A stretch of DNA of 64,000 nt from Bilabrum cf. latius (GCA_965178125.1 OZ237739.1:1302001-1366000), one strand, 5' to 3'. Shown: positions 5,101 through 54,000, counted from the stretch's first letter. Notes: generated from the letters alone by a model not told the origin. Made by a program: numbers and translations.

Positions 5101-6717
5101 GGAGCGTCCAAGGGCAAGAAGGTGTCCCCGAAGGGAAAAGGAATGGGCAAAGGGTAGGAAGAAGAAGAGGAGGATGATGGGGGAATGCGGGAGGTCAAGG
5201 AGCAAATCAGCATCGCCGAGGAGCTGCGTCGGCGCATGTGGTCGAGGGAACTGCCGCCGGCAGTGGTGCCTGACTTGCGGGCATGCGTGGCGGCCCGTCC
5301 GTCTGTCGCAGTCAGGGACGCAGCGGCACACGAGGGGCTGTGGGTGTCTCTGGTGGAAGAAGAGCTGGACATGGAGGTGGGGAAAGTGGACGGGAGCGGC
5401 GGAGATGCCGCTGAAAGTACGAGAACCCCACCTGATTTCTGGGAGTCCGTCTCCGGTGTGGTGGAGGCTGTGCCTGAGGGTCATGTAGCGGAGCATGAGG
5501 TGCTGGCAGCCGGGGCCTCTCTCCCAAGATAGGACTAGGACTAGGGCCAGGAGGGTGTCAAGAGTAGCAGCATCGCGGGCCTGGACCTGGCGGGGTACGA
5601 GGCACTGAGGCGGAAGGAGGACCGGGTGCTGCAGGGCAAGGAGGATGAAGATGAAGATGAGGAGGAGGAGGACATAGCGGAACCAGGTGCTCCTGCCGGT
5701 GTGGCTGCATCGGGCGCGGCCATCCCAGGAGGATCTCCTCCGCACCGGCAGCAGCCGAGGGTGCTACGGAGGAGGCTCCTGGCGGAGGGGTACCTGCCCG
5801 CTGGAGACCTGCCGTGTCCAGGCACGGAGCATCAGTGGGCAGCTGAGGCAACCGGCAAGGAGGCGTGGCAGGCGGCGGCACGGGCTGCGGAGTGCGGGGG
5901 TGCCGCAACTCCAGCCGAAGCGCTTGCACTGGAAGGGGTTTCTGCCTCCAGTATGGACGATGGCGATGGTGCTCAGGCAAAGGGCAAGGGCAAGGAGAAG
6001 AGCAAGGCAAAGGGCAAAGGGAAGGGGAAGAAGGGGGGGGCTGATCCGGAACAGGAAGATGTGCCACAACCCGCCGTGAGGCCAGTCTCCAAGGCACAAC
6101 AGGACCCTGCCGAAGCCGTGGCTGCGCGGCGCCGCGCTGGACAGGTTCCGCTGCAGCTCCACTGGCGCGAGCTGCCGTGTGCGTTGAGAAGGGCGGCTCT
6201 GGCGGTGTCACTGGCCAGGGTGGTGCGGCGGCGCGGGGGTTAGGGCCTGGAGGATGTTCGGGGCAGCAGGGGCGGTGCTGTGGGTGGTGGAGAGGGGGGG
6301 GAAGAGGAGGAGGGCGATGGCGGGGACGAGGCTAGGGCGCTTCGGGCAGCGGCCCAGGCTGTGCCCGCCCCCGCCGTGCTGTCTGCCCCGGCATGCCAGG
6401 CGGCCAGTGGTGCGACGAGCGGGAGCATGGTGTTTGGGGTGGCGTTGAGGAGGGGCGAGGGCGAGCTGGACGAGGTGCAGGGTGTGCAGGGGGTGATGAA
6501 GGTTAGTCTCCGAGCCATCAAGAGAGGGTTGTAGTCGTGGCCACTGGATGGCGAGAGGGTGCCCAAGGAGGGTGGCCCTGCGTCTGACAAAGAGGGCGCG
6601 GTGTCTGGAGACGGTGGTGGCGAAGCAGCGCGTGCGACTGGGATCCCGCCCCTCGTGGCTTGGACATCGTTCGAGGCGCTGCGGACTGGGTGCTGGTTCG
6701 CAGAGGATGGCTCTTAA
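2131..6717 (+). CDS. Leucine-rich repeat protein (LRRC43-like), ~1528 aa with TAG=Gln
   Basis: One frame from ATG 2131 interrupted only by 11 TAGs (2887, 3181, 3955, 4228, 4504, 5155, 5530, 5536, 5542, 6241, 6532), ending at TAA 6715. LRRs: FSSLEDLRVSG, LTRLVHLGLGHNSI, LRSLDLGWCSL, and cap LSHLNTAGNPCC. The LRRC43 resemblance is from memory. Confidence 0.75.
3710..3856 (+). repeat. Three perfect tandem copies of a 48-bp coding unit (DISGSEAASASPRGSA)
   Basis: CTGATATCTCTGGCTCTGAGGCAGCTAGTGCTAGCCCTCGTGGCTCAG starts at 3710, 3758 and 3806. Confidence 0.95.
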
Positions 6718-6877
6718 TCTGCGGCGGCGCATCGATGGTGGCTGTGGACGCGACGGGGGCTTGCAGGTATTTGAAGTTTGCTCCTTGAATTTTCCACCTA
6801 GGAATTCGCAATCCACCGCACGGTGACCGTGCACTGCACCGGCAGTGGCCCTTGGACTCGGAGCGTCAGCTAGATAT

Positions 6878-8887
6878 ATGCTTTTCTCTACTTTTTTTCG
6901 TGCCATGCTCCGACAATGTGGGTCGCGGTTCTTTCGACTGAGCTGTGGGAAACACCGCAGCGTGCAGACCCGGTCCTTGCTCCCCAGCGGACGAATTTTG
7001 AAGTCCATCACCAGCAAGTGCTTCGCGATGGATAGCAGAGAGGTATCCCGCTCCATCGCTTCATCGGCGACAAATTCTCAATCTCAGAGGCAACGAAAAG
7101 CTAAAGCATCGTAGGGATAGTAGCAGCAGCAACCGCAAAAGAGATCTGAGCCTCCCAAGAGTAGGAGAGGAGCTGGCGTGGAGAACCAGGTAGTGCTATC
7201 GATGTCGGGGATCACCAAGGTGATTCCAGGCAACCGATAGCTGTTGAAGGATGCAAGCATGTCATTTTGGCAAGGCGCTAAGATTGGGGTCCTTGGTCTT
7301 AATGGATCAGGCAAGAGCACACTGCTGAAGATTCTGGGCGGAGTTGACAAGGACTACGATGGCGAAGTCACGCTCAAGACGGGCCTGCGAGTCGGGTATT
7401 TGCACCAAGAGCCTCCAATGAGGCAAGGATCAACCGTTAAAGAAGCGATTTTCGAGGGCTTGCGGGAGCAGCTGGATCTGATCGACCGGTTCAATGACCT
7501 CAGCAATCGAATGGGCGAGCCAGACGCCGATTTCGACAAGCTGATTGAGGAGCAGGCAGAGGTTTAGGGATTAATCGAAGCCGCGGATGGATGGAACCTG
7601 GAGCACCTGGTAGGAATCGCAAAGCGCGGCCTGAACGTGCCCCCGGACGACGCTCTGGTGGATTCGCTTAGCGGCGGGGAGAGGCGGCGTGTTGCCCTCT
7701 GCCGGCTGCTGGTCGAGAAGCCCGACCTGCTGCTGCTGGACGAGCCCACAAACCACCTGGATGCAGAGTCCGTCCACTGGCTTGAGAGGTTCCTGGAATC
7801 GTATCCCGGTACTGTGCTTGCGGTGACACACGACAGGTATTTCTTAGACAGCGTGGCCGGATGGATCCTGGAGGTGGATAGAGGAAATTTGTACCCTTAC
7901 GCTGGCAACTACAGGGTCTGGCTCGAGCGCAAGCAGGAACGGTTGAACTCGGAAGCGCGAGCAGACAAGGCGGCCAAGCGGGAGCTGGACGAGGAGCTCC
8001 AGTGGATCCGGGCGGGCACCAACGGGAGGCAGCGCAAGAGTGGTGCTCGGATTAAGGCATTCGAAGGCAAGCAGGACGATCTGCTGGCCAAGCAGCAGGC
8101 GCAGAGGTTCAAGACGGGAAGGATCGCCATTCCCCCTGGTCCTCGCCTGGGTCACGATGTAGTGCAGGTGGAGAACCTCACCATCTCCGTGCCCAAGGAC
8201 CGGCCGACCGGGGGCGACGGTCGCGAGGGAATCGACACAGAGGACGATGGGTCGGGCGAGCGGAGGATTTTGGTGGAGGAAGCCACGTTTACCATTCCCC
8301 GTGGAGCTCTGGTGGCCGTGGTGGGGCCCAATGGGGCGGGCAAGAGCACGCTCATGCAGACCCTCCTGGGACTCCGGAAGCCAGACTCTGGCAAGCTCGT
8401 GCTCGGCAAGACGGTGCAGCACGCGTACGCAGACCAGGGGCGCAACCTGGAAGAAGGCTAGACGGTGATACAGGCCGTCGCTCAGAACCAGGAGAACGTC
8501 GCGGTGGGAGACCTCACCGTCCACACGCAGCACTACCTCGCCAAGTTCAGCCTCTCGGGCGCCATGTCCAAGAAGATGGTCAGGGACCTTTCCGGCGGCG
8601 AGCGGTCGCGGGTCCATCTTGCTCGAACTCTGCTGAAGCCATGCAACGTGCTTGTGCTGGATGAGCCCACGAACGATCTCGACGTGGAGACTCTGCGCAG
8701 TCTGGAGGAGGCGCTCGAGCAATACTAGGGAAGCGCTCTCGTCGTCAGCCACGACAGGTACTTCTTAGACAGAGTCTGCACTCACGTGCTTAGTTTCGAA
8801 GGAAATGGCAAGCTACGTTGGTTCGAAGGGTCCTTTTCGGACTGGGAGCAGCGCTACGGCGCCAAGACCAAGCTGGCCACCTCGTGA
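6878..8887 (+). CDS. ettA: ABC-F ATPase, EttA-like, with a putative mitochondrial presequence, ~669 aa
   Basis: Motifs [105 protein letters not shown] and [12 protein letters not shown]. Continuous through 7 TAGs (7112, 7118, 7121, 7238, 7565, 8459, 8726) to TGA 8885. Start is 6878 or 6905. Confidence 0.92.
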
Positions 8888-9007
8888 ACCTTGCGGCTAC
8901 CGCTGCATGACGTGTACATTGTATTGAACAGAAACAACCAGTTGCGTGTGGTAGTGAAACTAGAAGAGAACAGATTGAGAGACAGTCAACAACATGGGCA
9001 AGTTGCA

Positions 9008-11464
9008 TCACTTGCCGCCCTTGGCCTTTGTGGCCTCCGACTTTGGCAAAAAGGCGGGGGGCTGTCCTCCCGCACCTGCACCTGCTGCACCTGCAGCGAC
9101 TTTCTTGCCCCATTCGCCAGAAGGAGCTGCGCCCGCGGGGGCAGCCGCTGCCTTCCCTCCCTCGCCGAGGCTCGGGAACGACCCAGGCTGGACGGTGTTT
9201 TTGGGTGTCGCCGATGACGAGGACTTCGCCTTGCTGGAGGAACCGCCCCCCTGCCCACCCTTCTTGCCACTGCCACCTCCACCGCCACCCCCGCCGCCAG
9301 ACCGATTGCTCCTCCCCCTCCCATTCCCTCTGCCATTGCCCCCGTTGTGCTTGCCACCCCCACCCCCACCGCCACCCCCGCGACGGTCACCACCACCACC
9401 ACTGCCCTGCTGCCGCCCCCGACCCTATCCCTATCCCTATCCCTATCCCTATCCCTATCCCTATCCCTATCCAGGACGCGGCTGCGCGAACCCCTACACA
9501 GGCACACCCCCCCCCTGCATGGGCGGCCTCGGAGCCTGCATGCCCCCTTGCATGCCAGCGCCCGCCACCGGCAATGCCATGCCTCCATGCTAGCCGGGCA
9601 TACCTGGCATGCCACCAGCGGGATACCCCATCATCGGCGCCCCAGGACCGCCAGGAGGTATCCCCTGATAGAACTGCGGAGGCGGGGGCGCGCCCATGTA
9701 TGGGCCTGTCGCACCCTGCACGAATGGCTGCGGCATGCCCCCCATGGGCACCCCTCTCGGAGGCATGGTGCCGGCCCCCGGACCGCCCATCCCGCCTCCC
9801 ATCGGCATGGACATGGGCACGCGGGCACCGCCCCAGCCGCCAGCATGCGGGGGTGCCATGCCCATCGAGGTGTGCACTGGCGGTGGGCCCATTGCCTGGC
9901 CAGGCCCTGCCATCGGCATGCTAGGGTGTGGCCACCCCTAGCTTGCTGCCATGCCCGGGCGTGGGCCCGGCGCTGACTGGCCTGTCGGCTTGAAGACGGG
10001 GGCGTTCGGATCTAGCTTGAACGGTGCGGCATTAGGGTCGAGCTTAGTCTTTGCCTTGGCTGGTGCCGGTGCTGGAGCCGGCGCTTGGCCCTAAGATGCC
10101 GCAGCAGGTGCAGGTGCAGGAACAGGTGCAGGAGCAGTGGCCGGGGCCAAGGCAGCAGCTGAACCGAGTCTCTAGTTCAGACCCATGGAGAACTGCCTCA
10201 AACTCTCCACCTCTGTTTGGCGATCCACTGAAGCAGGCTTTCCTTTAGAGCTGGAGCTCTTGTGCACCAACTTGTGACCCTTCTTCCCACCGTGCCTGGA
10301 CAGGGCCTTGCGATGGGCGTGCCCATCCTCTTCGAGCTTCTGGAACACCCTTGCCTTGACGTCCAGCTGCTTCTTGGCTTGTTGGTTCCCGACGGGTGCA
10401 GCAGCCGGGGCAGCAGCCGGGGCAGCAGCCGGGGCAGGAACGGGAGCAGGAGCGGGAGCAGGAACGGGTGCCGGGACGGTACGGCGAACGTCAGAGAACC
10501 TTCCCTCGGAGTCTTTCTCGTCCTTGCCACCCGCCGCTGCCCCGGTCCTCCAGCTCTTGGCACCCTCCGCCGCTCCCGGCGAGCCCATGGGAGCAGCTCC
10601 ATGGCCGATGGATTTGCCCTTGCCTTTGCCCTCGATGGCTGCGGCCGCCCTGGCGATTTTCCTCCGGTCCTCTGCAGAGAGCTCCCTCTCGTCCACCTTT
10701 TTGGTCGTGTAGTCCTGCTCCTTGAAGCCGTCGAACTTGACACCGATGTTCTCATTGGCCTTGAACTGATCGAAGGATTTGCCGGAGGAGATGGCGTCGT
10801 TCGGGGCGCTCCCGGCGTCCTGGGGCTGCAGCCACGACTGGTCCACGTCCTCCAGCTTGCGCTCGCCGCCGGCTGCACCGCCGTGCCCCTGGCGTGCCTG
10901 GGCCACTCGCTGCCCGATCTGCGCGTCCGTCGTTCCAGAGATAGACCCGGATGCCATGGACGTGCCGCCGTCGGGGAAGTACGCATCTTCTGCGCACATC
11001 TCTTCGATGGCAGTCCACGGGATAGTGAGGAAGTTTGCTTGCTTCTTTGGAAGTGAGATCGCCGACTCAAGAGAACCCTTCTTCTGCGCGCAACAAAAAA
11101 TAAATCATGCATGTTGCGTAGAATGATAGGAGTCCATACTTAGGCCACGCCACGATAAATTCCAGGCCAGTGTGAACTTACGGCGCAGTAATAGTGCTGC
11201 AGGTTCACCGACTGCTGGCTCGAGTTCGACCTGTCGCTTGAATGGTATTGCCCAATCCATTCCGATCCGTCGACACAATAGACAGTGACCTTCTCTCCCT
11301 GCGAAGATGCAAACAGGCATATTGGCACGGGTCCAGGTATCACCAGGGTGTAGCCGCACGTAGAACTCACATTCATGCCGCACGTGCGCAATACTGGTGA
11401 CCAAGCCCCGAGTTCTTACCTGGAGAGCAGTGAATGCATAAAGGACGCGCTCAGCCGATGACAT
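9008..11464 (-). CDS. ATXN2: Ataxin-2/Pbp1-like protein (Lsm, LsmAD, tandem PAM2, Pro/Gly/Met-rich and RG-rich tail), ~745 aa; exons 11464-11420, 11298-11182, 11083-9008
   Basis: Sm-like start ERVLYAFTALQGEKVTVYCVDGSEWIG, LsmAD FDQFKANENIGVKFDGFKEQDYTT, and PAM2 KLDPNAAPFKLDPNAPVFKP. Two GT-AG introns (121 and 98 nt) keep frame. About 13 in-frame TAGs. Ends TGA 9010-9008. Confidence 0.85.
9425..9472 (-). repeat. (GGATAG)8 coding repeat = (Gly-Gln)8 under TAG=Gln
   Basis: (CTATCC)8 on the plus strand, read GGA TAG in the ataxin-2 frame. Confidence 0.9.
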
Positions 11465-11596: not shown

Positions 11597-14500
11597 TCAC
11601 TCCTCCATGGCTTCTGAACCGCGGGACTTATCCACTGGGAGCTCACCAGGCAGCAGCATCGCATCGTCGTCGTCTTCATCGTCTTCGTCGTCGTCGTTGT
11701 CGCCCTCACCTTGCCCCGCGCCGCTTTGCTGCTCGTCCGGGCTAGCTGCATGCTGGTGTCCACCAGCGGCCCTGCCACTGCTAGTGTCCCTCAACGCAGA
11801 TGACGACTATGCAGCACCAGTCGATGCCCCTTCCATTCTCTACTGATGCAAAGGCTCGTCTTCCTCCTCGCCTGAACCAGCCGTCTCCCCACGTGGCTCT
11901 GCGTCAGCCGCACTCGCCCTGGCCTGCGCTGCAATGCGCTGCATCCTATCCAGCGCGCCCGACAGCTCCGACTCCACTGCTACCAGCTTCTTCAAGCAGC
12001 CTTCGCTGCCAGCATCCACGCTCCACATAGCAGAGCCCGCCCCTTGCTCGGACCAACCCGCGCCCCCACTGCCAATCCCACTGGCGCCGCTGGTCGTGTT
12101 CCTCCCCGCCGAAATGCCCGCGGTGCTCAAAATCTACACCAGCGCGCCGTCATCTACCAGTAGTTTCAGCTCCGAGTCCTGCCGCGAGGGAACAAACACC
12201 GGCAGCCGAAGCTCACCCGCCGCACCGGCCCCGCCCTGCCCTACCCCTAACCCAAGCCCGCCTCGGAGACACGCAGCGGGCAGCTTGCCGACGTCCTCCG
12301 CGTCCAGCCCCAGCGCCGCCGCCATCTCCACCAGCTGTTCCCTGCGGGCCGCAGCGGCCTCCCTGACAGTGACGAGTGCCTGCCTCACCACTGCCAGGGA
12401 CAGCGACAGCAGAGCGCCAAACGACCTCCTTGCCTCCTCCGGGCTCGACCTCGCGCCCACGATTCCCCGGTCCCCTACCCTCTCCAGAACCTTGCCCACG
12501 GCCCGACGCAGCCTGCCGCTAGGGTCACCCCCGTGCTCCACGGCCTCCTGCTCCACCAGAGCCCCTGCTGACCGCCTGGGCCACCGGTGCCCTCGCCCTT
12601 CCCCGTCTTCGAAGTCGACCTCGTCATCGTCCTCCTCGTCCGAGCTCTGCATGGCAGACCGCTTCCGCTTCTTTCCGCGGAGCCTTTTCCCGCCAGTCTT
12701 CTTCCCCCCCTTGCCCTTGCCCCTAGATCCCGCCTTCTTCTTCTTCGGAGCCGTTTTCCGGCCTCCCACGATCTTGACGAAGATGCCGGTCGTGGGCTCT
12801 GGCTCCAGGCCCAGCTGGATGCACCGGTTGCGGATGGCAGTCTCACTCCTCTTGGCCCCCGAGGGGAACTGCAGGGTCTGTGCCAGCGTGAACACAGCGC
12901 TCTCGATGCCGCCGAGGCTGCCGTGCTCCTCCTGTAGCGCCTTGTCGTCTTCCTTGGTCCAGGCAGGCCCCAGCCCGCCGCCACCTCCACCGGCCATGTC
13001 CTCCTCCTCGTCTTCGTCTTCGTCATCCTTCATCGCGTCGACAGGCGCGGATGGCTTGGCATCGCTGACCGGCAGTGCCTCTGCGGCCTCCCACGCCCGG
13101 ATCCGGAGCGCCCTGAGCTCAGCCTCCTCGTCGTTATCGTCGTTGACGGCAGCCGTCGCGTCCCACTCCTCCTCGTCGATCTCGCCCCTGTTCTGGGCCA
13201 GCTGCTCGTCCGCTTCCATCCTCGCCAGCTCGGCCTTGGAAGGTCCCCTGCCCGGGCCCTTGGCACCGCCGCGGCGGCTGCCCTGCGGCACGAGCTCCTC
13301 GTCGTACCCCACCGCAAGCAGGAGGGTGGCACCTCTCTCCCGCCACGTGATGGCCTCCACCAGCACCAGCGGGGACACAACCGAGGCCGTGGTCAGCGTC
13401 TGCACCACCTCCATGCACACCACCACGAATGGTGCGTACTGAGGCTTAGCCACGCGGCTGCCCGCAGACAGAGGCAGCCCGTCGGCACCGCGCTGCCCGG
13501 GCTTGGCCGCCTCCAGCAGCCGGAGGTCCGTCAGGGCTGCATTGCACACCTCCAAGAAATCAAAGTGCCACAGAAGAGGAGCGAAGGTGCGCGGGAAGCA
13601 CGCCTGCTGCGCAGCCGCCAGCCTGTCCTGCGCGCCCTCCTCCTCGCTGATCGCCTTCTCCATCACCTCGCGCGCCGCCTTGGCCTCCTCATCCAGTGCC
13701 GCGGCCCTGTCCAGCAGCTGCGACGTGGTCATGCCCAAGATGCCGGACTTGCCGGCGCCGGACGCGTCGCCGTCGCTCGCGCCGCCTCCAGCAGAGCCGT
13801 CGGCCGACCCCTCGCTCGGCCGCTAGGCCCCCGCGTTTGCCTGCCTCGCCGCCTCATCCGAGGCCTGCTGGGCGGCGTAGTACTTGGCCTGTGTGGGCTC
13901 GACCGCGGCCGCGCGGATGTCGAAGTCGATGGCTGCGCTGCGGTACTCCTTCACGGCGCTCCCGTCGCAGATCGACCTGAGCCTGCTCTCCACGGCACTG
14001 GGGTCCTGGTCCGGGATGGGGTGCCTCAGGATGCGCCGCATGATGTCAGCGGCCGCCTGCAGCTCGCCGGTGGGCAGCTCCGCGTAGCCTTGGGCCACGA
14101 AGAGGAGGGCCTGAGCTGCCTTGGGCTGGACGAGCTGAGCCAGGTAGCCGTGGTAGTCGAACGCCTCCTCGCGGATCTCGCTGGACGCCTTCTTCTTCTG
14201 CTGCTGCTCGCGCATGCCCTGCGCCACTTCCTCCTCGTCCTCGTCCTCGTCCTCGCCCGCAGCTGCGGCGCCGCCCCTCCTGCGCCTTTTTTTCTTCTGC
14301 ACCAGGAATCCATCCCGCGCGAGGGCCTCTCCCATCGACAGCATCATCTGCATGCAGCTCACCAGGTCGAGCGTGAAACCAGAGGTGAAGCGCCCGAACT
14401 CCCAGTTGCGCATGACTCGAGGCACCACCTCCATCACCTCACGCTCGTAGAAGAGCATCCGCACCATGGCCTTGCCCACCGCCCTCGAGTCGTCGTCCTC

Positions 14501-17118: not shown

Positions 17119-17999
17119 ATGGCCGGTGTTGCTGAGGGTTCATCACCATTTGTAAATGAGGATGGGACGCTCAAGGAAGTGAAGACCGATTATTGCCCCC
17201 GTGAGCAACCAGAATAGGTTGATCGTTCTCAGCCCGCCGAGAGCATGCCAATCCACGCGCATCATAACCATGTTCGTCCAATGAATAATGCATCTATATC
17301 TATGCAGATTGCGGGTTGCCGTCTGAGTTTTGTGGATTTGCACCGGAGTACGAAACGCTGTGCAAGCCTCACTTGGCCGAGACGAACCCCGAGTTGCTGG
17401 CTGAGATCGAGGATGAGCGAGCAAAGGGGTTCAAGCTTGTGTCGAAGAAAGCGCCAAAGGTAGCCGCTGCGCCCGCAGAAGCTGCCGACCCGGCAGCAGG
17501 AGCAGAAAGCGCCACTGCACCAGCATCCGGCGCGGGAGCCGGCGGCGACGAAGCCGCACCTGCCGAGGCGTCTGCTGAAGGCGGGGACCCATCTGCACCA
17601 CCGCTGAGTCCAGAGGAACGCGCTAAGCGCGAGGCTGAGGTGAAGGCGAGAGCGGCCCGCGCCGCGAAGTTTGTCATGTGCGTGCTTCGCGAGACACGCG
17701 CGAAGAAGAACAAGAAGAACAAGAAAGACAAGAAGAGGAACAAAGTCTCTACCGGCATCGTGGGGATCGATGCCGCGGGTTTGGACCCCAAGGAGGCCTG
17801 CAAGACGCTTGGCAAGCGCATGGGCACCGCCTCCGTGCTGACCAAGAGCGACTCTGGCAGGCCTGAGATCTAGCTGCAGGGCGACCACATGAGGATCATC
17901 CCGAGGATCCTGGTGGAGGAACTGGGCGTGGACAGCGGGATCATTCGGATCGTGGAGGAGATCGACGGCAAGCTGCGAGCCAGGAAAGCATTCGCCTGA
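17119..17999 (+). CDS. DENR: Density-regulated protein DENR/Tma22 (Zn-binding N-terminus plus SUI1 domain), ~257 aa; intron 17201-17307
   Basis: Spliced DYCPHCGLPSEFC, then RNKVSTGIVGI..LDPKEACKTLGKRMGTASV and EI[TAG]LQGDH. Ends TGA 17997. Confidence 0.88.
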
Positions 18000-19662: not shown

Positions 19663-20124
19663 TCCGAAACATCCGGTGGCGAGTGCTGCATAAATCCAAT
19701 TTAATGCCGAAGAACCTGATCTGCTATCATTGATGCGCTATGTTGCAGCAGCAGGGGCATTGCTAGTTCGTAGCACAGAGGCACAGGACCGTCGGCTGGA
19801 ATTCAGCAATCTCGTAGCTATCTTGCCCGCTCTGCGAGCCGTACCTCCGATCATAACACTAATTTGATTTGAGGATTAATACACTAGCTATCAGTGTTTG
19901 TTCACGCGCGCACGGCTCGTAAATTGCAATTAAGCAAGAATACAGAAATACATTTGAAACAGCTCGGTACAAACACGCTGATCGAAACCGGAAGTGGCGA
20001 CCACCGAAACGCAGTCCGTTGCATTTGCGACCTTCCCAGCTATCACGTTGGACCTATGAGCAAGCTGGTTATGGAAACCAGCTGATTGTTGTATTGATTA
20101 GATTATCGTACGTATCTGCTTGCT

Positions 20125-33846: not shown

Positions 33847-33960
33847 TCGTGGCTGGCCTTGGAATCCGCGGAAGGAGCCGAGCGACAGGATCTGATACAA
33901 GAAGTTGTCTCACTTTGCTCGCAGTGCCAATCACCATTATTATGTATTGCGGCACTCCTC

Positions 33961-44000: not shown

Positions 44001-45841
44001 AACGCCTGCAGCGACTTGCGACCAACGATGCCGCCCTTCTCGGCTGCCCCAGCCAGCGCCTTGAGTCGCCATCTAGCCCTAGGCCCTGGGTCTGCCTTGG
44101 TAGGCTGACTATCCTTGGCTCGCGTGCTGGCTTGGCTACCCGGAGGCGCTGCCTGCCCGCCTTCTGAACGCTTTCGCCCTGCCCTGCCCCGCGATGGCTT
44201 CGTTTGTGACTTTGTTGCCCTGCCCTTCGCCTGGTTTGCTTCAGTGCTCCCATCAGCAACCCCTCCACCTCTTTCACCTTCGCCCTCGTCGCCTCTATCG
44301 CCTCCATCCTGCTGCATGTCAAGTGCAGCGATGGCCGCCATAGAGGCGCGCCGCCTGCGCCCAACACTCCCTCCCATGCCGCTAACGCTGCTGCCCATTG
44401 CACCCGTCGCGATGGACAGGTGCGGTACTCTTGCATTGGCCCGGGCCTGCGGGGTCCTCGTTGCACCTGCATCCCCTGCACCCCTTGCATTCCTATCCAG
44501 TCCATTCCCAGCCTCCTCCTCCACCTCCACCGCCTCATCATCCTGCTCCTGCACTGGATCCAGTGTGCTGCCGTCTCCAGCAGAAAGCCCACGTCTCATC
44601 AGGTCCATCTAGCTCCACGCGGCCTGCTATCTCTCCGACACGGCAGAGACAGGAGCCCCAGAGTCCCTGAACACGTCCTCTGCCAGCAGCAGCTCGCGCA
44701 CATGCACCGAGATGCCGTCCTGGTCCTGGTCCCTGTCCCTGTCCCCGTCCTTGCCAGCCCGTGTCCCATCGCCACCAACACCCCCATTCGCACCCCTACC
44801 CCTGTTCCCTGCCTTGTTTCTCGCCAGTTTCTTGGCCTCCCTGGCCCTCCACCTGGTCGCAACCTCCTTCGTGCGCGGGCGGGCGAACGGTTCCATGGCG
44901 CGGTCGAGGCCTCGCTGGGTCACCGTGCGGCCTTCCCTCCTGGCCTCACGGGCCTCTGCGAGTCGTGCCAGGCGTCTGTTGCGCCGGTGCACTGACACAG
45001 CACCCCCACCGCCCTGGGTATCCAAGAGACCGAGCGGGTAGGTTGGCACTGTGAAGTTGCTGAGGGGGGCGCTGAGGTCGTTTGCCGAGGCATGCAGGGG
45101 GGCACCGGGGAGCGGCCTGCTCCTTGAGATGCGAGCGGACGGTACGTCCAGCATCCTGTGGATGGCATCCAGCTGCTCCTCCGTCAGCGTGGCGGAGGCA
45201 GCTGCCTGCTGCTCCGGCCCGGGGTCGCCTCCTCGCTCCGCCGCTCTGGCCGCGCCTCTGCCAGACTTGGATCCGCGGTGCCTGCCTAGGCTAGCCTCCA
45301 GCGTTCGGCCTTCCCCATTCCCGCTAGCAACCGCGGTCACTGCTCGGATTCGATCCTTCGCAGCTGCTCTCATCCTGCTGTTCTGGTCCATGTCTCGCTG
45401 GGTGATCTCAATGTCCTCGCCGCGACGCTTTTCCACGAGAAACCCAACCACCTGCTTGGCTGCTCCGGATGGCGCCGGGGACAGTACCATGGGCTCAATA
45501 GAGTGAAATGGCCTGCCACGAACGTACTTGTGGTACTCTGCGTTTGCTTCGAGCCTGGCTTGGACGCCGTGTGGCAAAAAGAACCGCTCCTCTGGAAGCA
45601 TAAGGGCTCTTCGTTCCAGCTACGCAGCCTTGTCTGCGATATAAAGGCGTAAATACAGAGTGCAAACTTGTGCATGGGTGAGTTATTGCCAATTGCGAAC
45701 GCTGCAAGAAATGGTTGAAGCCTGACCATATTCGCCGAGGCCCAGCATCTCGCGCAACAGCGTATCACCGGCACCACTCTCGTCATGGCCCCGTAAAAGT
45801 TCTTTAAGCTTTGACTTTGTTGTTTGGGGGCTATTGGCCAT
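38057..45841 (-). CDS. Large low-complexity/coiled-coil protein of unknown function, ~2560 aa; probable exon 1 at 45841-45727, intron 45726-45634
   Basis: One frame from 45633 to 38057 broken only by TAGs (45620, 44627, 44609, 43832, 43358, ~43157, 41945, 41657, 40001, 38570), ending TGA. The 5' exon is tentative (weak GTCAGG donor); ATG 45601 is an alternative start. Confidence 0.7.
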
Positions 45842-46051
45842 AAGGCGTTTGCAGATTTGCTTGCCAATGTCGCAGGTCCGTTGGTGGACGTTTTAATTCC
45901 GGATGCTCAATTGATCCGATCTCATCCAGGGATAGGCCCTACGAGGAATAGCCGTTGCGAGTGTACCGTGCAGTCCGCAATGCGTATGAACCAAATCATT
46001 CTCATGCCCGTCTTTCGTTGTGCTGGCAGGCACAATCCGAGCACGGAGGAA

Positions 46052-46096
46052 CCAGCCGGGGGCTGCACGTGGCCAGCCGGGGGCTGCACGTTGGCC
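46052..46096 (+). repeat. Two-copy 21-bp tandem repeat CCAGCCGGGGGCTGCACGT(T)GG
   Basis: Copies start at 46052 and 46073 in apparent intergenic DNA. Confidence 0.8.
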
Positions 46097-46774
46097 GGTC
46101 GGTGTCCAGTAAGGCGGATAGAGACGTGATCGGCTGCAAGTGTTGGAGTGTCTGTTCACGCAAAACTGTACGATTTGTGGGTAATTGGTACTCCGCTGCA
46201 CCGAGCTTGGTTGTTCTATGAGGGCTCGCCTGCTCTTGCTGTGATCACACTTTTCTAATCTATCGGCGTCCAGGCTGGCATCGTTGCTGGGGATTGAGCC
46301 ACGTATTGGTACAAATCCGCTAGGAAAGTATCGTAGGGTGCACGAATGTACTTCTTGGAAGTCGCGAAGCACGGATCAAACATTGCGACCAGCTTGGATC
46401 AGTGATGCCGAATCCGTCTGTCGCCGGCGAGGTGACGAGTTCCGGTTCGCAAAGGCAGGATTCTACAGGGCTTTCCGGCATATTTCCGTGCAAGATGGGT
46501 GCATGTTGCTCTAATGATCCTACTGGGAATACTCAAAATTAGTCTGTGCCAGTATCTGACGCTGTCAACAGTGAGTGACGGGCCCATATCGCCGTATTTA
46601 AACGCCGAAAGCGACTAGCCCTTGCCTCGAAAGCTAAGCCTAGTGGGCCCAAAGGTCTGCCCATGAACTAGAATACCGCCTTTATAATACCAGAAGTGTC
46701 TTTTCTATCATATAACTTGATACGCGCAGGTGTTCGCGCCCGAACACGTGCCAGTGTGGTGAGGAGGATGGAGC

Positions 46775-48190
46775 ATGCAAGCATCCATCATGCTGGCATC
46801 GGCAGCTAAAACTGCGATGAGCCGACCAAGCCAGAGCCCCAGGTTTGCAATTGATTCGCCTCGAATGCACGAGAACGGCGATTGTCAATATTTCATTCGC
46901 TTTCAAACGCAGGTCTATCCCGAATCTAGCTCCCAAGAGCCATTGCAGGGTTGCATAAAGACGAGCCACTGCTAGCGGCGACATTCAAAGAGGAGGAACG
47001 ATCAAGCCGCCTGGAACAAACTGCATAGTATAAAGCAACGCTATGCATCGCTTGCTTTGCGCCTTCCGGAGTTCGACCGGCTAACCGGAGGAGCGGCAAC
47101 TGATATTACAGCGGGTGCATCCCGAACGGGCCGGAGCAGAACACATGGATCGTTACTAGTTGGAGCTAGCAAAGTCAAAACAGTAGCAATAAATGATGAA
47201 ATATCTGGAGCTGCTTGCCGAACCACGTCTTGCTCTGCCCTCGGAGGGCACGGCCAGGGAGACTCAATGCGACCAGGAGCTGCTGTTCAGTCAGCGGCGA
47301 GCTGCCATTCCCTTCGAAACGAAGCGATCACGAGCGCTACAGCGCTCTCTAGATGGCAGGTACAATTGCAAGGCACCCCTTCTTGTGAAGACCTGCTAGA
47401 CCTCTCCGACTCCGGTCCCACTGACGACATCGGACAGCAGCTGGAGTCGCCAATGCCCGCGGGGTCACCCGCCGCCGGCAAGAGGGCGAGCAACTTCAAG
47501 CTGGCAGGCGACACTGCCCATCTCCGCCGGATGAAGTCTGTCCCAAATCTGCATGCTGCTGGTCTGGGCCATGGACCCATGCCCGTGCCCATGGTCACCA
47601 ATGGCGGTGGTGGCAGGACTGGCGCTGTCTCCAAGGACCTCCAGGCCAGAGTTGATCGGCACCTCAGGGGTGACGACTCAGACAAGGGGGCAGACAGCAG
47701 CGGCAGCTATCGCCGTGGATCGCACGGGTTCTCCTCCCACGGTTCCTCCGTGTGGCTCCCTGCAGCTGGCAGCGGTTCCTCGCACGTGCCCCTGCCGGGA
47801 GGCGAGCATGGAGCAGGTGCTTCGGGGGGCGAGCATGGTGGCGGCGAATAGCCAGACATGGCAGACTTTCCGAACTTTGGTTCCATAGAGGCGCCGGCCA
47901 ATGCACGCTGCAGGTGGCTGGAACAACACCAAAGGCGGGGCAGCAGCCTAGACTCCGTGGGGCAGCTGGCCGTGCTGGGCGCACCGGGGCCATCGGGGAA
48001 CAGCGAGACGGGAGACAGCATTGGCCCTGCCCCATGCAGCGGGAGCATGGAGAGCTTGCGAAGGGAGGTGGAAAGGATGCATGATCTCTACGGAAGCAGG
48101 AGCAGCAGCAGGAGCAGGAGCAGGAGCAGGAGCAGCAGCAGCAGCAGGAGCAGGAGCAGGAGCCAGGGGGCGGGGAAGGTGTAGCCGTGA
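46775..48190 (+). CDS. Hypothetical disordered protein with an SR-rich tail, up to 471 aa; start uncertain
   Basis: ORFs 46775-46975, 47057-47851 and 47858-48184 are one frame joined by TAGs, ending TGA 48188. Contains basic kinase-site-like motifs RRMKSVP and RRGS. Confidence 0.5.
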
Positions 48191-48364
48191 GCGGGCTGCC
48201 TGACAGCCTGCCCGCGAGCTGTTTCTTGGGCACCAATGCAGGTCTCTAGAATGACCTGCGTGTAGCGACTAGTTTCTGTGCAACCATTACAATCTGCAGT
48301 CATTCACTGAGAATGAGAAACAGTCCCTGGATCGGCGAGCTTTCATCGCCGAGCTTGGGGGGCT

Positions 48365-50318
48365 TCAACGCCTGCCGCCTCGTTTGCCCCTCCTCCTCTC
48401 TCTGATGTCGAGCGTCCTGATTTCATCCGCTCTCATTTCTGCCTCCATACGCCGCTCCCAGCCCGGCGAGATGGGGTTGTCCTCGAGCCACTGCAGCATC
48501 TTCGCTTCGCTCTCCTTCTCCAAGGCGGCCTTCTTGCTCCTCTTCATGCGGCCGAACCGCTTTCGGGTCTTGGCACCGTTCTTACTGCTGGCAGCGCCTT
48601 GCAAACCTTTCGTTTTCTTGGACCCGAGACCAGCATCCCCGAGGGCCGCCTCGTCTTGCGCGGCGCCCTCTTCTGGTTCCGCAAGCAGCACGTCAGCCAG
48701 CGTGGCACCCTCCCTGGCCGCCTCCAGAACGGCCTCCCTGCTGGCATCGTGACCCGCGCCATCGTGACCCGCGGCCCAGGGCGAGGCCGCCTGCACCAGG
48801 TCTTCCACAGACCCCCCTGCCCCTGCCGCATCCCCGGGCATGAGCGCACCCGTCGCCAGAGCCTGCGCGTTCCGCTCCATCTGCGCGTCTGCATCCTCCA
48901 CCTCGACCCTCTCTGGCAAGTCCCTGTCCCAGATCCCCTCCACGTTCAGGGAGGCGCGTGCATCCGCCTCGAAGACGTTGACCACCATGTTGCCGCAATC
49001 TACCGCCATCCAGTCGTCCCCGCTCCGGTTCTCTACCTCCCACCGACCCACAGAGTCCCACTCGCGCAGCTTGCGGCGCCGCAGTGCCCTGCACACCATG
49101 TCTGCCAGCCTCCTCATGTGGCTTGTCGTTCTCCCAGTCACGAAGATCAGGTGCTCAGCCAGTGACGTCTTTCGGCTCACGTCCAGCACACGCACGTCCA
49201 CGCCCCCTTCCTCTCTGAGTGCCCTTGCCACCTCGTCTGGGGCGAGCGGCTGGCCCTCCCGCACGGGGATGGGGTCTGCCGCCCTCTCGTGGGGTCGTTG
49301 CTGGGTGGGAGGCACCCAGGAGAATTCTCCCGGCGTGTGGGGGGCGTCCTCTGGTGCATATATGGGGGCTTCCGATTGAATGGAGGAAGAGGAGAGGGGG
49401 GGAGACTCCCCTGGGTGGCTCAACGAAACACCGTCTGACGCATCAATCGATGCAGTAGCATCTACCGATGGAAACTCCGATGGAACGGCATGGGAAGACT
49501 GGCTTGCCCTCGCTGTCGATGACTCAGCAGAGGGGGGGTAAGGCCCAGGCGCTGTCGCTAGGGAGGGGGCCTACGTGGGAGGCACCGTCCCCGCCTACTG
49601 GGGGAAATTCAAAGGGGGCGCAAACGAAGAGGCAAGCGATTCTGCCTATGCTGATCCACCTTCGCTGCTAGCGACCTCTTCGCTCCCCCACATGGCCACG
49701 TCGTCCCGCCCGGAGACTGCTTCGGAGGCGTACATGCGAACCAGGGCGTCGTAGGCGCGAGCCGCGGCTTCCGGCGTGTCGTACTCGCCACCGGAAACTT
49801 CTGTGCCGCGATGGGGTAATTCCAAGACTGCTTCGAACATTCTAGAGTCCCTGTCGAAAATGACACCGTGAAATCCACGGTACGGCTTGCGAGGGTGCTT
49901 GGGCTTGCCCGATTGCCCTGCCTCCTTGAGTTGCTCCTAGGCTGCAGACACCACCTTCTCGGCTTCGGCTTCGGAATTATACACACCTGCAAAGTTGAAT
50001 ATATGCTCATGCTTGTACAACATGTTGAATGAGCGAAGCACAGAATCAGAGTACCGCCAACGGAGTGCACTGTTTGCTGGGCAGCCACAACTTACCCAGC
50101 AAAAACTCGTTGCCATCCGGCGTAGTCACGACGGCTTTAAACTATTTGCTCTTCTCGACTGGCTTAACGCTTGCTTTAGCCAGAGCTGCGAGCCCACGGA
50201 TGTTCCCGAGATTCCACACCAGGGTGCCTCGCCCATAATTTCCGCACAGCACACCGCGCAGTTGCAAAGTTCGGCAGTATAATGGCTAAAGACATCGACT
50301 ACCTCGCACGAAAGCCAT
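48365..50318 (-). CDS. Fusion of a presequence, two AP2-like domains and an RsfS/Iojap (MALSU1-like) domain, ~614 aa; intron 50095-49987
   Basis: RsfS: VRVLDVSRKTSLAEHLIFVTGRTTSHMRRLAD..DDWMAVDCGNMVVNVFEADARASLNVEGIW. AP2-like: YRGFHGVIFDRDSRMFEAVL..GEYDTPEAAARAYDAL..LNFP. Continuous through about 6 TAGs. Ends TGA. Confidence 0.8.
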
Positions 50319-50537
50319 CTGCGAGCAATGATTTCTTCGTTTGAAGGGTGGATGGAAAAATGAGCAATGAAATTGCACTGCACTGTAAGACTGCAGTCTG
50401 CAGCAGTTGCGGCCGAAAGTCCACCGTCATGGTCATGCTGTCATTGCGCAGCACCCATTGTTCGGTTATGCTTGACCTTCAATAAGATTTCAGATTCCAG
50501 ATTTCAGCAACGAGCCAAGAGCGCATTCCAAGCGCCA

Positions 50538-53183
50538 TCAGGGGGGCGGGGTGCGGCCACTGGCCGCTGTCCTGTGAGCCATCCTTGCGTTCATCATCGC
50601 AGCGTACTGCGAGCGACCGTCCGCGCCGCTCCCGTGCCGAGGCGTGCCCCCGGCCCTTGGCAGCGCCACGCCGCGCGAGGGAACAGGGGCCCGGCGCCCC
50701 CCTCGAGCATGACCCTTGGCTCCCCTCACAGACCCCTGCGCTCCCCTGCCGCTGCGCGAGCAATACCCCAGGCAGACCCCAACGCAGGAAGTCATTAGAT
50801 CAAGCAGGCCTGCCGCATGCCGCACCAGCCACTGCAGCGCTTGCAGCATCCAGCCGACCGCACCACCCACCACCGAGCCGCACAAGGCACGCCATACACC
50901 AACGCCCCGGCCCACACTAGTCCCACCCGCTGCACCTCCCCGCCCCTTGCCCTATCTATGGAACGGGATCAAAGCCCCGTCACCGCGCACCTCCTCCGCG
51001 AGGGCCCTAACCAGGAGCACCTGCAGACCTGCAAGCACCACAGCGACCGCCACGTAGCACGCCATCGAGGTGTCCAGAGACCACAGGTGGTCTTTGACCA
51101 CCTTTGTGTGGGTCGCCTGTCTCGTCGTCATGCGCAGCGCCTCGTTCCGCACCCCCTGCAGCACCTTGCCGGCGGCGCGGGCCGTCCCCTCCATCTGCTC
51201 CATGAGGGCTGCCAGGTCCTGTCCTGGGTTCGTGTCTAGGTCCAGCTCAGAGGAGGGAAGCGCGCCCTGGGCGCTGCCCATGCCCATGCCGCCACCGACA
51301 CGGCTGTTCCCTGACCACGTCAGGTCGTCGTGCGTGGGCTGGCCGCTCGCACCCTCCCCCTCACCCCCGCCCTCACCCTCTGACCCATCGGGGGACAGCA
51401 CCTCCCCCCTCCCAAGCAGCCTGTGTCTCCCCGCCATGGGGTCCCTCTGTCTGACCACCCTGAGGCCCACTGTAAGCACCGCTTGGTGCGCGGCTCCGTT
51501 GGTGAATCGCATGCGGTACCTGCCCCCAGGGAACAACTCGAAGGCGACGTCGTCCCCCGCCAGAGTGCTGACGTGGTACACGCGGTCGATTCCACTACCA
51601 CCACCGCCCCGTCCACTCGTCACATCCCCGATGATCTTGCTGGTGAGCTCCAGCCGCAGGTTGCCCTCGGCCAGGTCGCTGGGCGGAGGCAGCGGGGGAG
51701 GAGGAGCGGCGGCTGCCGACGAGGGGTCCACGTAGCCGGGTGCGCCGGGGCCCAGCATGGGGTCGGCTGCACCGGCACCGGCACGCCCTCCCGCGCCCAG
51801 CCCGCCTTCTCCACCATCCCCGCCTGTGCCCCTTTGTTCCCTGCCCTCGTCCTTGCCCCTGCCCTTGCCCCCGGATCGTCTCGCCCTGGCTAACCATTCC
51901 CTTGACCCCGCCGCCTGGAGCTCCTCGTCGTCCCAATCCACCCGGAATCCCAGCAGAGCCCACAGCTCCGGTGTTTCCGTGCCGTCAGCGCCAGCATCAT
52001 CATCGTCCTGTTCTTCCTGTCGATCTTCTCCTTTACCTCTTCCTTGATCTTGATCCACCCCTTCCTTTGCTTGCCCAGGATTCGATTGCGTCTGCTGCTG
52101 CTGCTGCTGCTGCTGCTGCGTATTCCTCTGCTCATCCATAGCCCTGGCCCTAGCCTTCAAGGCCCCGATGCTCTCTCCGATTGCAGGGCCGGTGGGGGCC
52201 TTCTTGCCGTTCAAGAACTTGGCCTCCCGAGCCTCCCTGTGCCTCCGCTCGACCTCGGCGGCGGCTGCATCCGCCAGCTCTGCCCTACTCAGCTTCTTGC
52301 TGCTCGGATCGCCGACAGCGGGCATGCTGGCGCTGGCGGTTGCAGACCCGGGCAGAGCTAGGTTGGCCTGGTTATCGTATTTCATCGCGTGTGCATCTTC
52401 CCCGGCGCTGAGCCGTCTCCTGCCCGGCCCCTGCCCCGGCCGCTGCCCCGGCCCTTGCCCCGGTGCCGCCGCAGAAGCAGCTCGTGCCGTCCTCGAGACA
52501 GCGCCCGCGCGGGCTGTAGTGTCGCGGTGCTGGTCGCTCGCCGCCGCCATGGCCCTTGCTCGGTCGAAGGCGTCTGCCGCGGGGGCGTCCTCGAAAAGAT
52601 CCACGTGCTCCCCTGGCTCAATCCGCATGGTCAGCACGCCCTCCAGCTCGGCCAGGACAGAGTGCCTGGCTCGGTGGCCGAGCGGAGGCGAGCCGCCGGA
52701 CTTGCCTGAGGGTCGTGCGGTGCCTGGCACCGAATCAGGGCTATCTAGCCCCGCCTCTTCTGGGGCAAGGGAATTCGATTCGGGCGCGTGGCTGCCTTCC
52801 GGCACTGCCTGGTCGGTCTATGCATCCACGGTGCCACTGCCGGTTCGTGTGCCGTGTGGTTGGGCGGCCGAGCCGGTCCAAAGGATATCATCGTCTTTCG
52901 CATGCTCCTCGCCGTTTTGTGAAGTGGCGTCGCCACCAGGAGCCTCTGAGGGCAAACCAGATGCCTCAGGCGGGATGCTACCATCGCCACTTGGACGCAT
53001 GCCTCTTACCTTGCTTGCTATTGAACCTGTCGCGAGCCTCCCGAGCCCCCCAAGGCCTGGCTGAATATCGACAGCAGACACATTTACGGATATCATCAGT
53101 AAGCATGAAATCATTACGGCCCGAGCCGCAGGAGCGAGCGCGCGGCCAGCCGCGATACACGAAGCATGTTGCCTAGCAGCCAT
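50538..53183 (-). CDS. p24/emp24 GOLD-domain-like membrane protein with long insertions, ~881 aa
   Basis: Signal-like VMISCLLMISVNVSA, GOLD-like strands LTMRIEPGEHVDLFE and GGRYRMRFTN, a coiled coil, then TM YVAVAVVLAGLQVLLVRAL. TAGs at 52818 and 50952. Ends TGA 50540-50538. Confidence 0.65.
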
Positions 53184-53390
53184 TACAGCTGCTAAAAGAC
53201 CGAGTCTGCAAAGTGAAGCCACTCAGCCAGCCGTAATTAGCAGTCAGGCGGCTTCTGCCAGGTACGTTAAGGTAAGTCTAAAGCGTGCTGGGCGCGCCGT
53301 TCGCTGTGTGCAACCGGTTCCGCAACTTGAAGTGGCGGCCTCAAGCCTCTATCGGCCGTGCAGGCCGTTGCATCCACACACACGCACAAG

Positions 53391-54000
53391 ATGGCTGCAT
53401 CTGGAGCCGGTACAGATGATAAATCAACTGGAGGGGGTGGTGACGCTGCGCAGGAACGAGAGGCCATGCAAAATATGAACTCCGGAGCTGCCGAAGTCGA
53501 AATTGATGAGGAGAAGGTTATGGGGGAATTGTAGGAGCTTTTGAAGGACGTCAACGCCGAAGAAGCAGAAAGATAGTTACTGTGAGCCAAACCAGTTGCG
53601 AAGCTTGTAGGCGCACTGTGTGCAGATTCCATGTGTGCAAATCAATGGACAACTCGATCGCAAACTCTCACCCCCCCACAGGGAAAAGGCACTGAAGGCT
53701 ATTAAGGTGTCAGATGCGGACGTTGAAACCGTATCGACTGAGTTTGAGATTAGCAAGCCGATTGCCCGCCGAAAAATCCGAGAAGCCGGCGGCAATGCAT
53801 CGGAAGCAATGCTGAGGCTCATGGGTGTGGCAGAGGATGACAAAGGAAAGGCGGTACTGGATCGCATGTAGCGCAGGCTGAAGCGATTGCAAGAGTTGAT
53901 GGCAGAAGCCAAGGAAAAGGGACTGGACGAAGCTGCCGCTATGGCTGAGGCTTCAAGGTTGTTGGCAGAGGAGGACAAGGCGGCGAGCTCAAAGCAGTAA
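53391..54000 (+). CDS. HYPK: HYPK-like (NAC-type UBA) protein, ~169 aa; intron 53582-53681
   Basis: EKALKAIKVSDADVETVSTEFEISKPIARRKIREAGGNASEAMLRL matches the HYPK UBA pattern. TAGs at 53532, 53574 and 53869. Ends TAA 53998. Confidence 0.8.

Follow-up and report, generated by a model that had tools for sequence, protein, structure and literature searches.

Evidence that UAG encodes glutamine while UAA and UGA terminate translation in a GC-rich microbial eukaryote

In the window, the whole 64-kb stretch of DNA analysed here, UAG was translated, was retained in mRNA, and had glutamine as its meaning, and TAA was barred from reading frames no less strictly than TGA and terminated two genes. We consider it highly probable that UAG specifies glutamine and that UAA and UGA are the only stops, which is the pattern of NCBI table 15 and not that of table 6. 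In all likelihood, the DNA is nuclear and comes from a microbial eukaryote of high GC content (63% in the window) in which UAG alone has been reassigned. A related species, represented by the metagenome locus L001, shows the same code features as the window. The splitting of UAA from UAG is rare, being described for a handful of lineages so far, and decoupling as such is already known from passages of two papers (PMC5304391, PMC11687900).

UAG as a glutamine codon

Eighteen gene models, comprising 18,782 codons, contained 101 in-frame TAG codons, no internal TAA, and no internal TGA, in line with a preliminary description of this DNA that had counted about 100 in-frame TAGs and no TAA within genes. 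The models are as follows.

g01, 678..1997, plus strand: hydrolase of the SGNH/GDSL type carrying a (Gly-Ala)n tail; 0 TAG; TGA, with in-frame GCC TAA TAA TGA directly downstream; protein search (Protein Atlas) matched only bacterial SGNH hydrolases
g02, 2131..6717, plus strand: low-complexity protein of 1,528 codons; 11 TAG; TAA stop at 6715-6717
g03, 6878..8887, plus strand: ABCF ATPase of EttA type, extended at its N-terminus by a basic segment; 7 TAG; TGA
g04, 9008..11464, minus strand: LSm/ataxin-2-like protein, named by eye with no Pfam match; 13 TAG, including a (GGC TAG)8 run; TGA; predicted introns 11084-11181 (contains TAA 11139-11141) and 11299-11419
g05, 11597..16417, minus strand: Timeless-domain protein; 6 TAG; TGA
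g06, 17119..17999, plus strand: DENR (SUI1 and DENR_N); 1 TAG; ends in TGA TGA; predicted intron 17201-17307 with TAA triplets
g07, 18181..19854, minus strand: protein without known family; 7 TAG; TGA
g08, 20125..32973, plus strand: leucine-rich-repeat protein of 4,282 codons; 12 TAG and no TAA; TGA
g09, 33961..36783, minus strand: 940 codons; 5 TAG; TGA, with in-frame TAA TAA 7-8 codons on
g10, 36871..37914, minus strand: acyl-CoA thioesterase; 2 TAG; TGA
g11, 38057..45748, minus strand: 2,532 codons; 10 TAG; TGA; RNA-supported intron 45634-45726
g12, 46495..48190, plus strand: protein beginning MGACC; 4 TAG; TGA; RNA-supported introns 46571-46729 and 46758-46911
g13, 48365..50318, minus strand: RsfS-domain protein; 6 TAG; TGA; RNA-supported intron 49985-50093
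g14, 50538..53183, minus strand: 881 codons; 2 TAG; TGA; orthologue in L001
g15, 53391..54000, plus strand: HYPK; 3 TAG; TAA stop at 53998-54000; RNA-supported intron 53582-53681
g16, 54162..55724, minus strand: paralogue of g17; 4 TAG; TGA; RNA-supported intron 55490-55606
g17, 56525..59575, minus strand: 908 codons; 5 TAG; TGA; RNA-supported introns 57793-57882, 58123-58266, and 59337-59426
g18, 59896..63999, minus strand: ABCC-type ABC transporter, 5' end cut by the window; 3 TAG; TGA; orthologue in L001

The gene models are real and expressed. When positions 42001-62000 were compared with contigs of runs X6-X8, which we guessed to be RNA and which are not recorded as such, ten splice joints of the GT..AG/CT..AC type were found, and contigs of the DNA run X5 contained none. 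Nine of the ten joints were used as introns, the tenth (54234/56538) being left out for its TC..TC ends, and the spliced frames stayed open across the RNA-supported introns. The introns near 11 kb and 17 kb are predicted, and contigs of this kind cannot reveal poly(A) sites.

Multiple observations support a sense role for UAG. First, the longest stop-to-stop frames rose from 1349 codons to 4292, 2542, 1730, 1645, and 1368 codons once TAG was read; reading TAA in addition (4292, 2773, 1749, 1645, and 1368 codons) brought almost no further gain, and the sole large one, from 2542 to 2773, crosses an intron with RNA support as well as upstream DNA that is richer in AT. Second, Pfam domains extended across TAGs in the EttA, ABCC, DENR, RsfS, HYPK, and thioesterase genes. 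Third, 55 TAGs passed a flank test for coding-like sequence on both sides. Finally, 19 of the 31 in-frame TAGs of 42001-62000 were present with 0 differing letters in RNA-like pieces, and UAG is therefore not edited away.

Comparison of L001 with the window points to glutamine as the inserted residue. At 14 TAG sites with local identity of at least 0.5, the partner codon was CAG at seven, TAG at one, and GAG at one; six of the seven TAG/CAG pairs had TAG in L001 opposite CAG in the window, and one pair was the reverse. Within the ABCC gene of L001, TAG occupied two invariant glutamines, in the Q-loop LVPQDP and in IQRAIR of nucleotide-binding domain 2. Among homologues of the window's own proteins, one TAG of the EttA gene fell at a column with glutamine in 91 of 120 sequences, and at six of the seven EttA and ABCC sites the commonest homologue residue was E, K, P, or M rather than Q. 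The neighbour analysis found no excess of glutamines beside TAG, and the tandem paralogues g16 and g17 were too diverged to inform on TAG.

Across homologue columns (120 homologues each), glutamine scored highest (-20.5) and glutamate came next (-21.5), and this step of one log unit is the point that speaks for a code in which UAG is translated as another residue, glutamate being the nearest. The seven CAG partners against a single GAG at the 14 well-aligned sites, together with the two invariant glutamines, argue against it. A related possibility is that UAG is sense or stop depending on context, as could be suggested by TAGs in the last 10 codons of g12 (at -2) and g16 (at -9), but chance alone would give about one gene with such a TAG (18 x 10 x 0.0054), and past a TAG located 17 codons ahead of the stop in the L001 ABCC gene the sequence is still conserved relative to the window. 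We regard an alternative or ambiguous meaning of this kind as very improbable, and read UAG as glutamine.

UAA as a terminator

TGA ended 16 of the 18 genes, and TAA ended g02 and HYPK. The preliminary description had named TGA as the dominant stop and had listed 18 TGA and 2 TAA ends, the latter at 6715 and 53998; the dominance of TGA and both TAA-ended genes were recovered, whereas the number of TGA ends was 16, or 17 with a cut gene that ends at 540. All three genes of L001 ended in TGA.

Codon usage bears directly on the status of UAA. The TAA trinucleotide was present in the same coding sequences 102 times in the two sense-strand off-frames and 91 times on the antisense strand, and its in-frame absence therefore does not stem from a lack of the trinucleotide. 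With the window's CAA/(CAA+CAG) value of 0.195, the probability of observing no TAA beside 101 TAGs was 3e-10, and with the lowest NNA share of any box (0.09) it was 7e-5. The 95% upper bound on the TAA share was 2.9%, and our sample, one 64-kb window and 6.9 kb of one relative, is compatible with a TAA share below ~2.5-3%. In L001, where the CAA share was 0.41, 1,739 codons included 19 TAGs and no TAA (P=4e-5).

These values weigh heavily against a reading under table 6, by which both UAA and UAG would be glutamine, TAA would be too rare to see at high GC, and the two genes would really end at TGAs 16-18 codons on. A GC3 of 0.71 in the window's coding sequence is in keeping with this reading, as is the standing of the coupled change as the commonest in eukaryotes, according to passages of PMC5304391 and PMC8629427. 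A-ending codons, however, are not rare (NNA share 0.09-0.42 in all other boxes), and the probabilities of only 3e-10 to 7e-5 and the equal absence of TAA from L001 argue against it.

The location of the two TAAs provides a further test. The next TGA lay 18 codons beyond the TAA of g02 and 16 codons beyond that of HYPK, the same extensions that the preliminary description had given, and this nearness of a TGA (at most 19 codons in both frames) counts in favour of table 6. A TGA within 19 codons past the true stop was nevertheless found for 6 of the 16 TGA-ended genes, and if TAA were a sense codon of low frequency, its two copies would both lie among the final 19 codons of their frames with a probability of ~3e-4. 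In HYPK, GC3 was 0.75 just before the TAA versus 0.38 in the 16 codons to the next TGA; in g02, GC3 over the 18 codons past the TAA was 0.56, a value that is not clearly non-coding. The C-terminus defined by a homologue, a check that the preliminary description had proposed, gave a concordant result: the terminal TGA of the HYPK orthologue in L001 lies four residues past the TAA of the window, at about the same place, and no alignment of the two tails was possible past ...EEDKA. The proposal that UAG is reassigned and UAA is still a stop is thus supported, and its caveat, that TAA might also encode glutamine, is disfavoured because of four independent lines, namely codon usage, L001, TAA position, and the HYPK C-terminus. 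We judge the table 6 reading extremely improbable.

Elsewhere in the window, no TAA with convincing coding-like flanks on both sides was found. Three weak flank cases all lay off the modelled frames, two opposite a long gene and one in another frame of g12. TAAs did occur in introns, two predicted (11084-11181 and 17201-17307) and one RNA-supported (45634-45726 of g11, where the TAA bounds the long frame). The first of these holds the TAA that had been assigned to an intron at 11140; it occupies 11139-11141 on the minus strand, inside a predicted GTAAGT...GCAG intron.

It could also be supposed that UAA has no assignment or terminates poorly, with no tRNA to read it and poor recognition by eRF1, and that it is avoided everywhere, leaving UGA as effectively the sole stop. 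Just two of 18 genes end in TAA, and both have a back-up TGA at most 19 codons downstream, which speaks for this idea. A harmful, unassigned codon would not, however, be expected to close a conserved and well-expressed gene such as HYPK, which had the top RNA-like contig depth of the compared stretch (56 in X6), contig depth being a poor measure of expression. In addition, TAA TAA serves as in-frame back-up stops after the TGAs of g01 and g09. We consider non-assignment of UAA quite improbable, and favour termination at UAA as well as at UGA.

Relatives and known codes

L001 was the one close locus among 11 in a search of metagenome contigs, and its ABCC protein was 75% identical to that of the window over 795 aligned residues; a search of genome contigs gave no close relative (best 35%). 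Identity to named relatives reached no more than ~45% for ABCC and 39% for DENR. The DENR search returned 74 matches, the best at 68 bits, and Phytophthora capsici (rank 4) was the only named organism among the 10 looked up. In an ABCC tree of 39 rows, hand-picked from ~240 matches to cover named lineages and the closest of those without names, a single clade comprised the window, P0247, L001, and P0248 and lay within a group of 11 unnamed sequences, with no clear placement among holozoan ABCC5, diatoms, and Phytophthora. In order of distance from the window, the L001 species comes first, then P0248, and then the P0126-P0130 clade, which looks to have the standard code. Runs labelled as algae or protist metagenomes contain a small share of the window's words, which is no evidence of habitat.

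The closest match in code is Iotanema spirale (Fornicata), for which passages of PMC5304391 describe UAG as glutamine and UAA and UGA as stops, and which shares with the window both the code table and the reassignment of UAG alone to glutamine in a non-ciliate nuclear genome. The predominant stop differs, being UAA in I. spirale (same passages) versus UGA in the window (16 of 18 genes). I. spirale is an anaerobic fornicate, whereas the window carries RsfS and an EttA-type factor, both extended at the N-terminus by basic sequence. These may be signs of organellar translation.

Ciliates provide additional examples, with passages of PMC11687900 reporting UAG alone as glutamine in Protocruzia tuzeti and two phyllopharyngean lineages, with several independent origins; these share with the window glutamine at UAG and a stop at UAA. 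The window is unlike ciliates in its 63% GC, its 18 genes on both strands of 64 kb, its GT-AG introns of 90-159 nt, and its very long low-complexity proteins. Ciliate genomes are not known to show such features.

The aphelid Amoeboaphelidium protococcarum, like the window, represents a non-ciliate heterotroph with TAG as glutamine, but in secondary statements within PMC6299283, PMC5304391, PMC11687900, and PMC6394959 its TAA is glutamine as well, whereas TAA is not a sense codon in the window. The window's ABCC, moreover, did not group with chytrid sequences in the tree. Identity with Amoeboaphelidium was rejected on composition, its genomes having 40.5% and 39.9% GC (PMC10608142, Table 1) versus 63% in the window and 58% in L001. 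In other decoupled codes, too, UAG has changed and UAA stays a stop: passages of PMC5304391 and PMC11687900 give UAG as leucine in the rhizarian exLh and as serine in Scotinosphaera, amino acids that differ from the window's, and part of PMC9523058 describes 'code 15' phages with TAG as glutamine, which are viruses of bacteria. Iotanema apart, our literature search did not find a GC-rich non-ciliate eukaryote with UAG alone as glutamine, and supplementary files may list more lineages. PMC3975115 makes no reference to the code.

A tentative reading, to which we give somewhat less than an even chance, is that the window and L001 represent a clade of protists, barely sampled or undescribed and comprising two or more species, in which UAG as glutamine with UAA as a stop evolved independently of all known cases and for the first time in a GC-rich non-ciliate genome that apparently keeps organellar translation and has UGA as its main stop.

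Possible mechanism and implications

By analogy with such codes as presented in passages of PMC5304391, UAG would be read by a tRNA-Gln(CUA) derived by a single mutation from tRNA-Gln(CUG), and eRF1 would have lost recognition of UAG and kept that of UAA and UGA. UAA could remain a stop because C34 of tRNA-Gln(CUA) would be unable to pair with the A of UAA; the same source predicts a tRNA-Gln(CUA) that is unable to read UAA for I. spirale. The preference for UGA may follow from the G+C-rich composition. No tRNA gene was detected in the window by ARAGORN or Rfam or in L001 by ARAGORN, and the eRF1 gene is absent from the 64-kb window and from L001.

UAA and UAG nearly always change together, with Iotanema, a rhizarian, Scotinosphaera, and some ciliates as the few exceptions in passages of PMC5304391 and PMC11687900. 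The window adds one more case, seemingly of separate origin, from a GC-rich genome whose chromosomes are of the ordinary multi-gene kind, and its value as a data point is strengthened by a second species that shares the change and by nine introns supported by spliced RNA-like contigs. The case is relevant to the way in which eRF1 and one tRNA with a CUA anticodon can separate UAG from UAA, and to whether composition, through CAG to TAG transitions and UGA as main stop, decides which stop is captured. Gene callers run with table 1, 6, or 11 would break or over-extend genes here, and table 15 is the one to use. Sequencing runs that contain 99% of the window's words, among them the DNA runs X1-X5, exist under organism labels, and there may thus be material for finding the tRNA and eRF1 and for proteomics.

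Reading frames, introns, and stop codons

The 64-kb window, whose G+C content is 63%, is cellular, eukaryotic, nuclear DNA. Under standard stops its longest stop-to-stop frame was 1,349 codons; reading TAG gave frames of 4,292, 2,542, 1,730, 1,645, and 1,368 codons, and reading TAA as well gained nearly nothing (4,292, 2,773, 1,749, 1,645, and 1,368 codons). The single long gain (2,542 to 2,773) comes from running through intron 45634-45726, which has RNA support, and on into upstream DNA richer in A+T. The TAG-read frames had the following Pfam matches.

EttA-type ABCF ATPase
Timeless
ABCC transporter
acyl-CoA thioesterase
RsfS
HYPK UBA domain
DENR (SUI1 and DENR_N)
leucine-rich repeats

To look for introns, contigs of three presumed RNA runs (X6-X8) and of a DNA run (X5) were aligned to positions 42001-62000. 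X6-X8 contained ten joints ending in GT..AG or CT..AC; X5 contained none of these, and nine were accepted as introns. Four more joints were long skips whose ends did not resemble intron borders, and they were discounted as assembly joins: two in X8 (12,396 and 2,303 bases), one in X5 (6,376 bases), and a further short-sided one. With the nine introns spliced out, every gene concerned was a single open frame from ATG to TGA or TAA. Three predicted introns outside the RNA-compared stretch were placed by eye at GTAAG/GTGAG...CAG sites.

Introns of the gene models
45634-45726, joint in RNA-like contig
46571-46729, joint in RNA-like contig
46758-46911, joint in RNA-like contig
49985-50093, joint in RNA-like contig
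53582-53681, joint in RNA-like contig
55490-55606, joint in RNA-like contig
57793-57882, joint in RNA-like contig
58123-58266, joint in RNA-like contig
59337-59426, joint in RNA-like contig
11084-11181, predicted by eye
11299-11419, predicted by eye
17201-17307, predicted by eye

In g11 the earliest ATG of exon 1, an exon supported by RNA, is at 45786 and does not share the frame of the 2,532 codons; the ATG that does lies at 45748 (window 45727-45786, minus strand). Such an arrangement suggests leaky scanning or an upstream ORF that overlaps. Only one base difference was reported across the 20 kb compared: position 50443 is A in the window and T in X5, X6, and X8, probably through strain or allelic variation.

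The final set of 18 gene models, from which a cut nineteenth gene with an apparent TGA end at 540 was left out, comprised 18,782 codons with 101 in-frame TAGs and no internal TAA or TGA, which confirms the split between TAA and TAG reported in the preliminary description. The two TAA ends reported there also stood; its 18 TGA ends became 16.

6715-6717, TAA stop of g02 (low-complexity protein)
53998-54000, TAA stop of HYPK

Within the same coding sequences TAA occurred 102 times in the other two frames of the sense strand and 91 times antisense, and TGA occurred 591 and 550 times off frame and never in frame. Thus, the TAA trinucleotide is available but is specifically excluded from the reading frame, like TGA. 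A model-free scan of every stop triplet, requiring 40 codons on each side to be coding-like by codon log-odds and free of TGA, passed 55 TAGs, three TAAs, and one TGA; because the long frames had served to train the score, the scan is a consistency check rather than an independent gene finder. None of the three TAAs, which scored weakly (0.07-0.13), lay in a modelled coding frame: two were opposite a long gene and one was in another frame of g12.

Back-up stops in frame follow g01 (TGA GCC TAA TAA TGA, 1995-2009), DENR (TGA TGA, 17994-17999), and g09 (in-frame TAA TAA, 7-8 codons past TGA, 33937-33963), a number of genes too small for a selection test. In g01 a long dinucleotide-type repeat (about 1650-1900, plus strand) encodes a (Gly-Ala)n tail, and its other frames imitate long ORFs.

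UAG as glutamine

L001, a 6,897-base, 58% GC metagenome contig from a relative, carries orthologues of three window genes: ABCC (identical at 600 of 795 aligned residues), g14 (308 of 781), and HYPK (112 of 169), with 9 in-frame TAGs in the part of ABCC present, 10 in g14, and 3 in HYPK. Twenty-five TAG sites were alignable between window and contig, 14 of them at local identity of at least 0.5, where the partner codon was CAG at seven, TAG at one, and TCA, CGG, GGA, GAG, AAA, or GCT at one each. Two TAG/CAG sites are invariant glutamines in a 15-sequence ABCC alignment (Q-loop LVPQDP and IQRAIR). Homologue columns for EttA and ABCC (120 each) ranked Gln first (log-likelihood -20.5) and Glu second (-21.5), a margin weak by itself; Gln was the commonest homologue residue at one of seven TAG sites (91/120). 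Of the 31 in-frame TAGs in 42001-62000, 19 appear unaltered in the RNA-like contigs (the other 12 fall outside the listed pieces), which rules out RNA editing for at least those 19. In g04 (9008-11083, minus strand), a (GGC TAG)8 microsatellite reads as (Gly-Gln)8.

UAA as a stop codon

Four lines of evidence support the proposal that UAG was reassigned and UAA kept as a stop, and they count against the caveat raised with it, that TAA might also be Gln. First, A-ending codons are not rare in the window (CAA 19.5% of CAA+CAG, GAA 25.5% of GAA+GAG, AAA 18.3% of AAA+AAG). The probability of no TAA beside 101 TAGs is 3e-10 at a 19.5% share and 7e-5 at 0.09, the lowest NNA share among boxes; the TAA share in the window has a 95% upper bound of 2.9%. 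Second, L001 has 19 TAGs and no TAA in 1,739 codons (P=4e-5), and its CAA share is 0.41, so GC bias could not conceal TAA there. Third, if TAA were a randomly placed sense codon, both in-frame TAAs would fall inside the last 19 codons of a frame with a probability of about 3e-4; if TAA is a stop, the feature left to account for is a TGA at most 19 codons downstream, and one also follows 6 of the 16 TGA stops. Finally, coding character falls across the HYPK TAA (GC3 0.75 to 0.38, codon score 0.33 to -0.22) and, less steeply, across that of g02 (0.72 to 0.56 and 0.01 to -0.17). The homologue-defined C-terminus agrees: L001 HYPK stops at TGA four residues past the window's TAA, where read-through would add 16 residues. 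The two tails do not align past ...EEDKA, which leaves this end supportive but short of decisive.

Known codes, mechanism, and relatives

Reassignment of UAG alone to Gln is described for Iotanema spirale and, among ciliates, for Protocruzia tuzeti and two phyllopharyngean lineages, alongside UAG=Leu in a rhizarian and UAG=Ser in Scotinosphaera (PMC5304391, PMC11687900). Iotanema has a code identical to that of the window but prefers UAA as its stop, whereas the window prefers UGA, and differs in composition and gene content. The evidence supports the window code as a further case of this already known UAG-only variant; supplements aside, a literature search found no description of the window's organism.

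According to PMC5304391, a CUA-anticodon tRNA decodes UAG and fails on UAA, a single mutation separates tRNA-Gln(CUA) from tRNA-Gln(CUG), and eRF1 has to lose recognition of the reassigned codon. For the molecular basis here, we infer that a tRNA-Gln with anticodon CUA would read UAG, leaving UAA unread, and that eRF1 would have ceased recognising UAG. The 64 kb contain no tRNA and no eRF1 gene, and no Rfam family reached its gathering score there. Frequent TAG/CAG differences between species fit free C-to-T exchange among synonymous Gln codons, and the fact that TAG never changed to TAA is consistent with in-frame TAA being strongly selected against.

Across 457 tree columns the Logan protein P0247 and the window ABCC are ~99% identical, and L001 is matched by P0248. 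A tree built from 39 ABCC rows chosen by hand placed these four inside a clade of 11 sequences that had no settled position. The best DENR match among 1.84 billion representatives scored only 68 bits. Amoeboaphelidium, an aphelid cited in secondary sources as reading both TAG and TAA as Gln (PMC6299283, PMC5304391, PMC11687900, PMC6394959), was dropped as a source: its genomes are 40% GC (PMC10608142 Table 1) versus 63%.

ABCC, the g14 orthologue, and HYPK directly adjoin in L001 (1-6897); in the window (50538-63999) HYPK is separated from ABCC by g16 and g17, and relative orientations are unlike those in L001, which points to rearrangement or insertion after the species split. These two genes (g16, 54162-55724; g17, 56525-59575; both minus strand) are diverged tandem paralogues (141 of 489 aligned columns identical) with a common near-identical C-terminal motif, ...PTGTAADQLPRRWPPTAGVSS, and neither matched a known family. 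EttA (6878-8887, plus strand), a translation factor of bacterial type that shares 49-55% identity with bacterial EttA, is extended at its N-terminus by about 120 residues of basic character; the N-termini of RsfS and the thioesterase are likewise basic, a pattern that may reflect organelle targeting.
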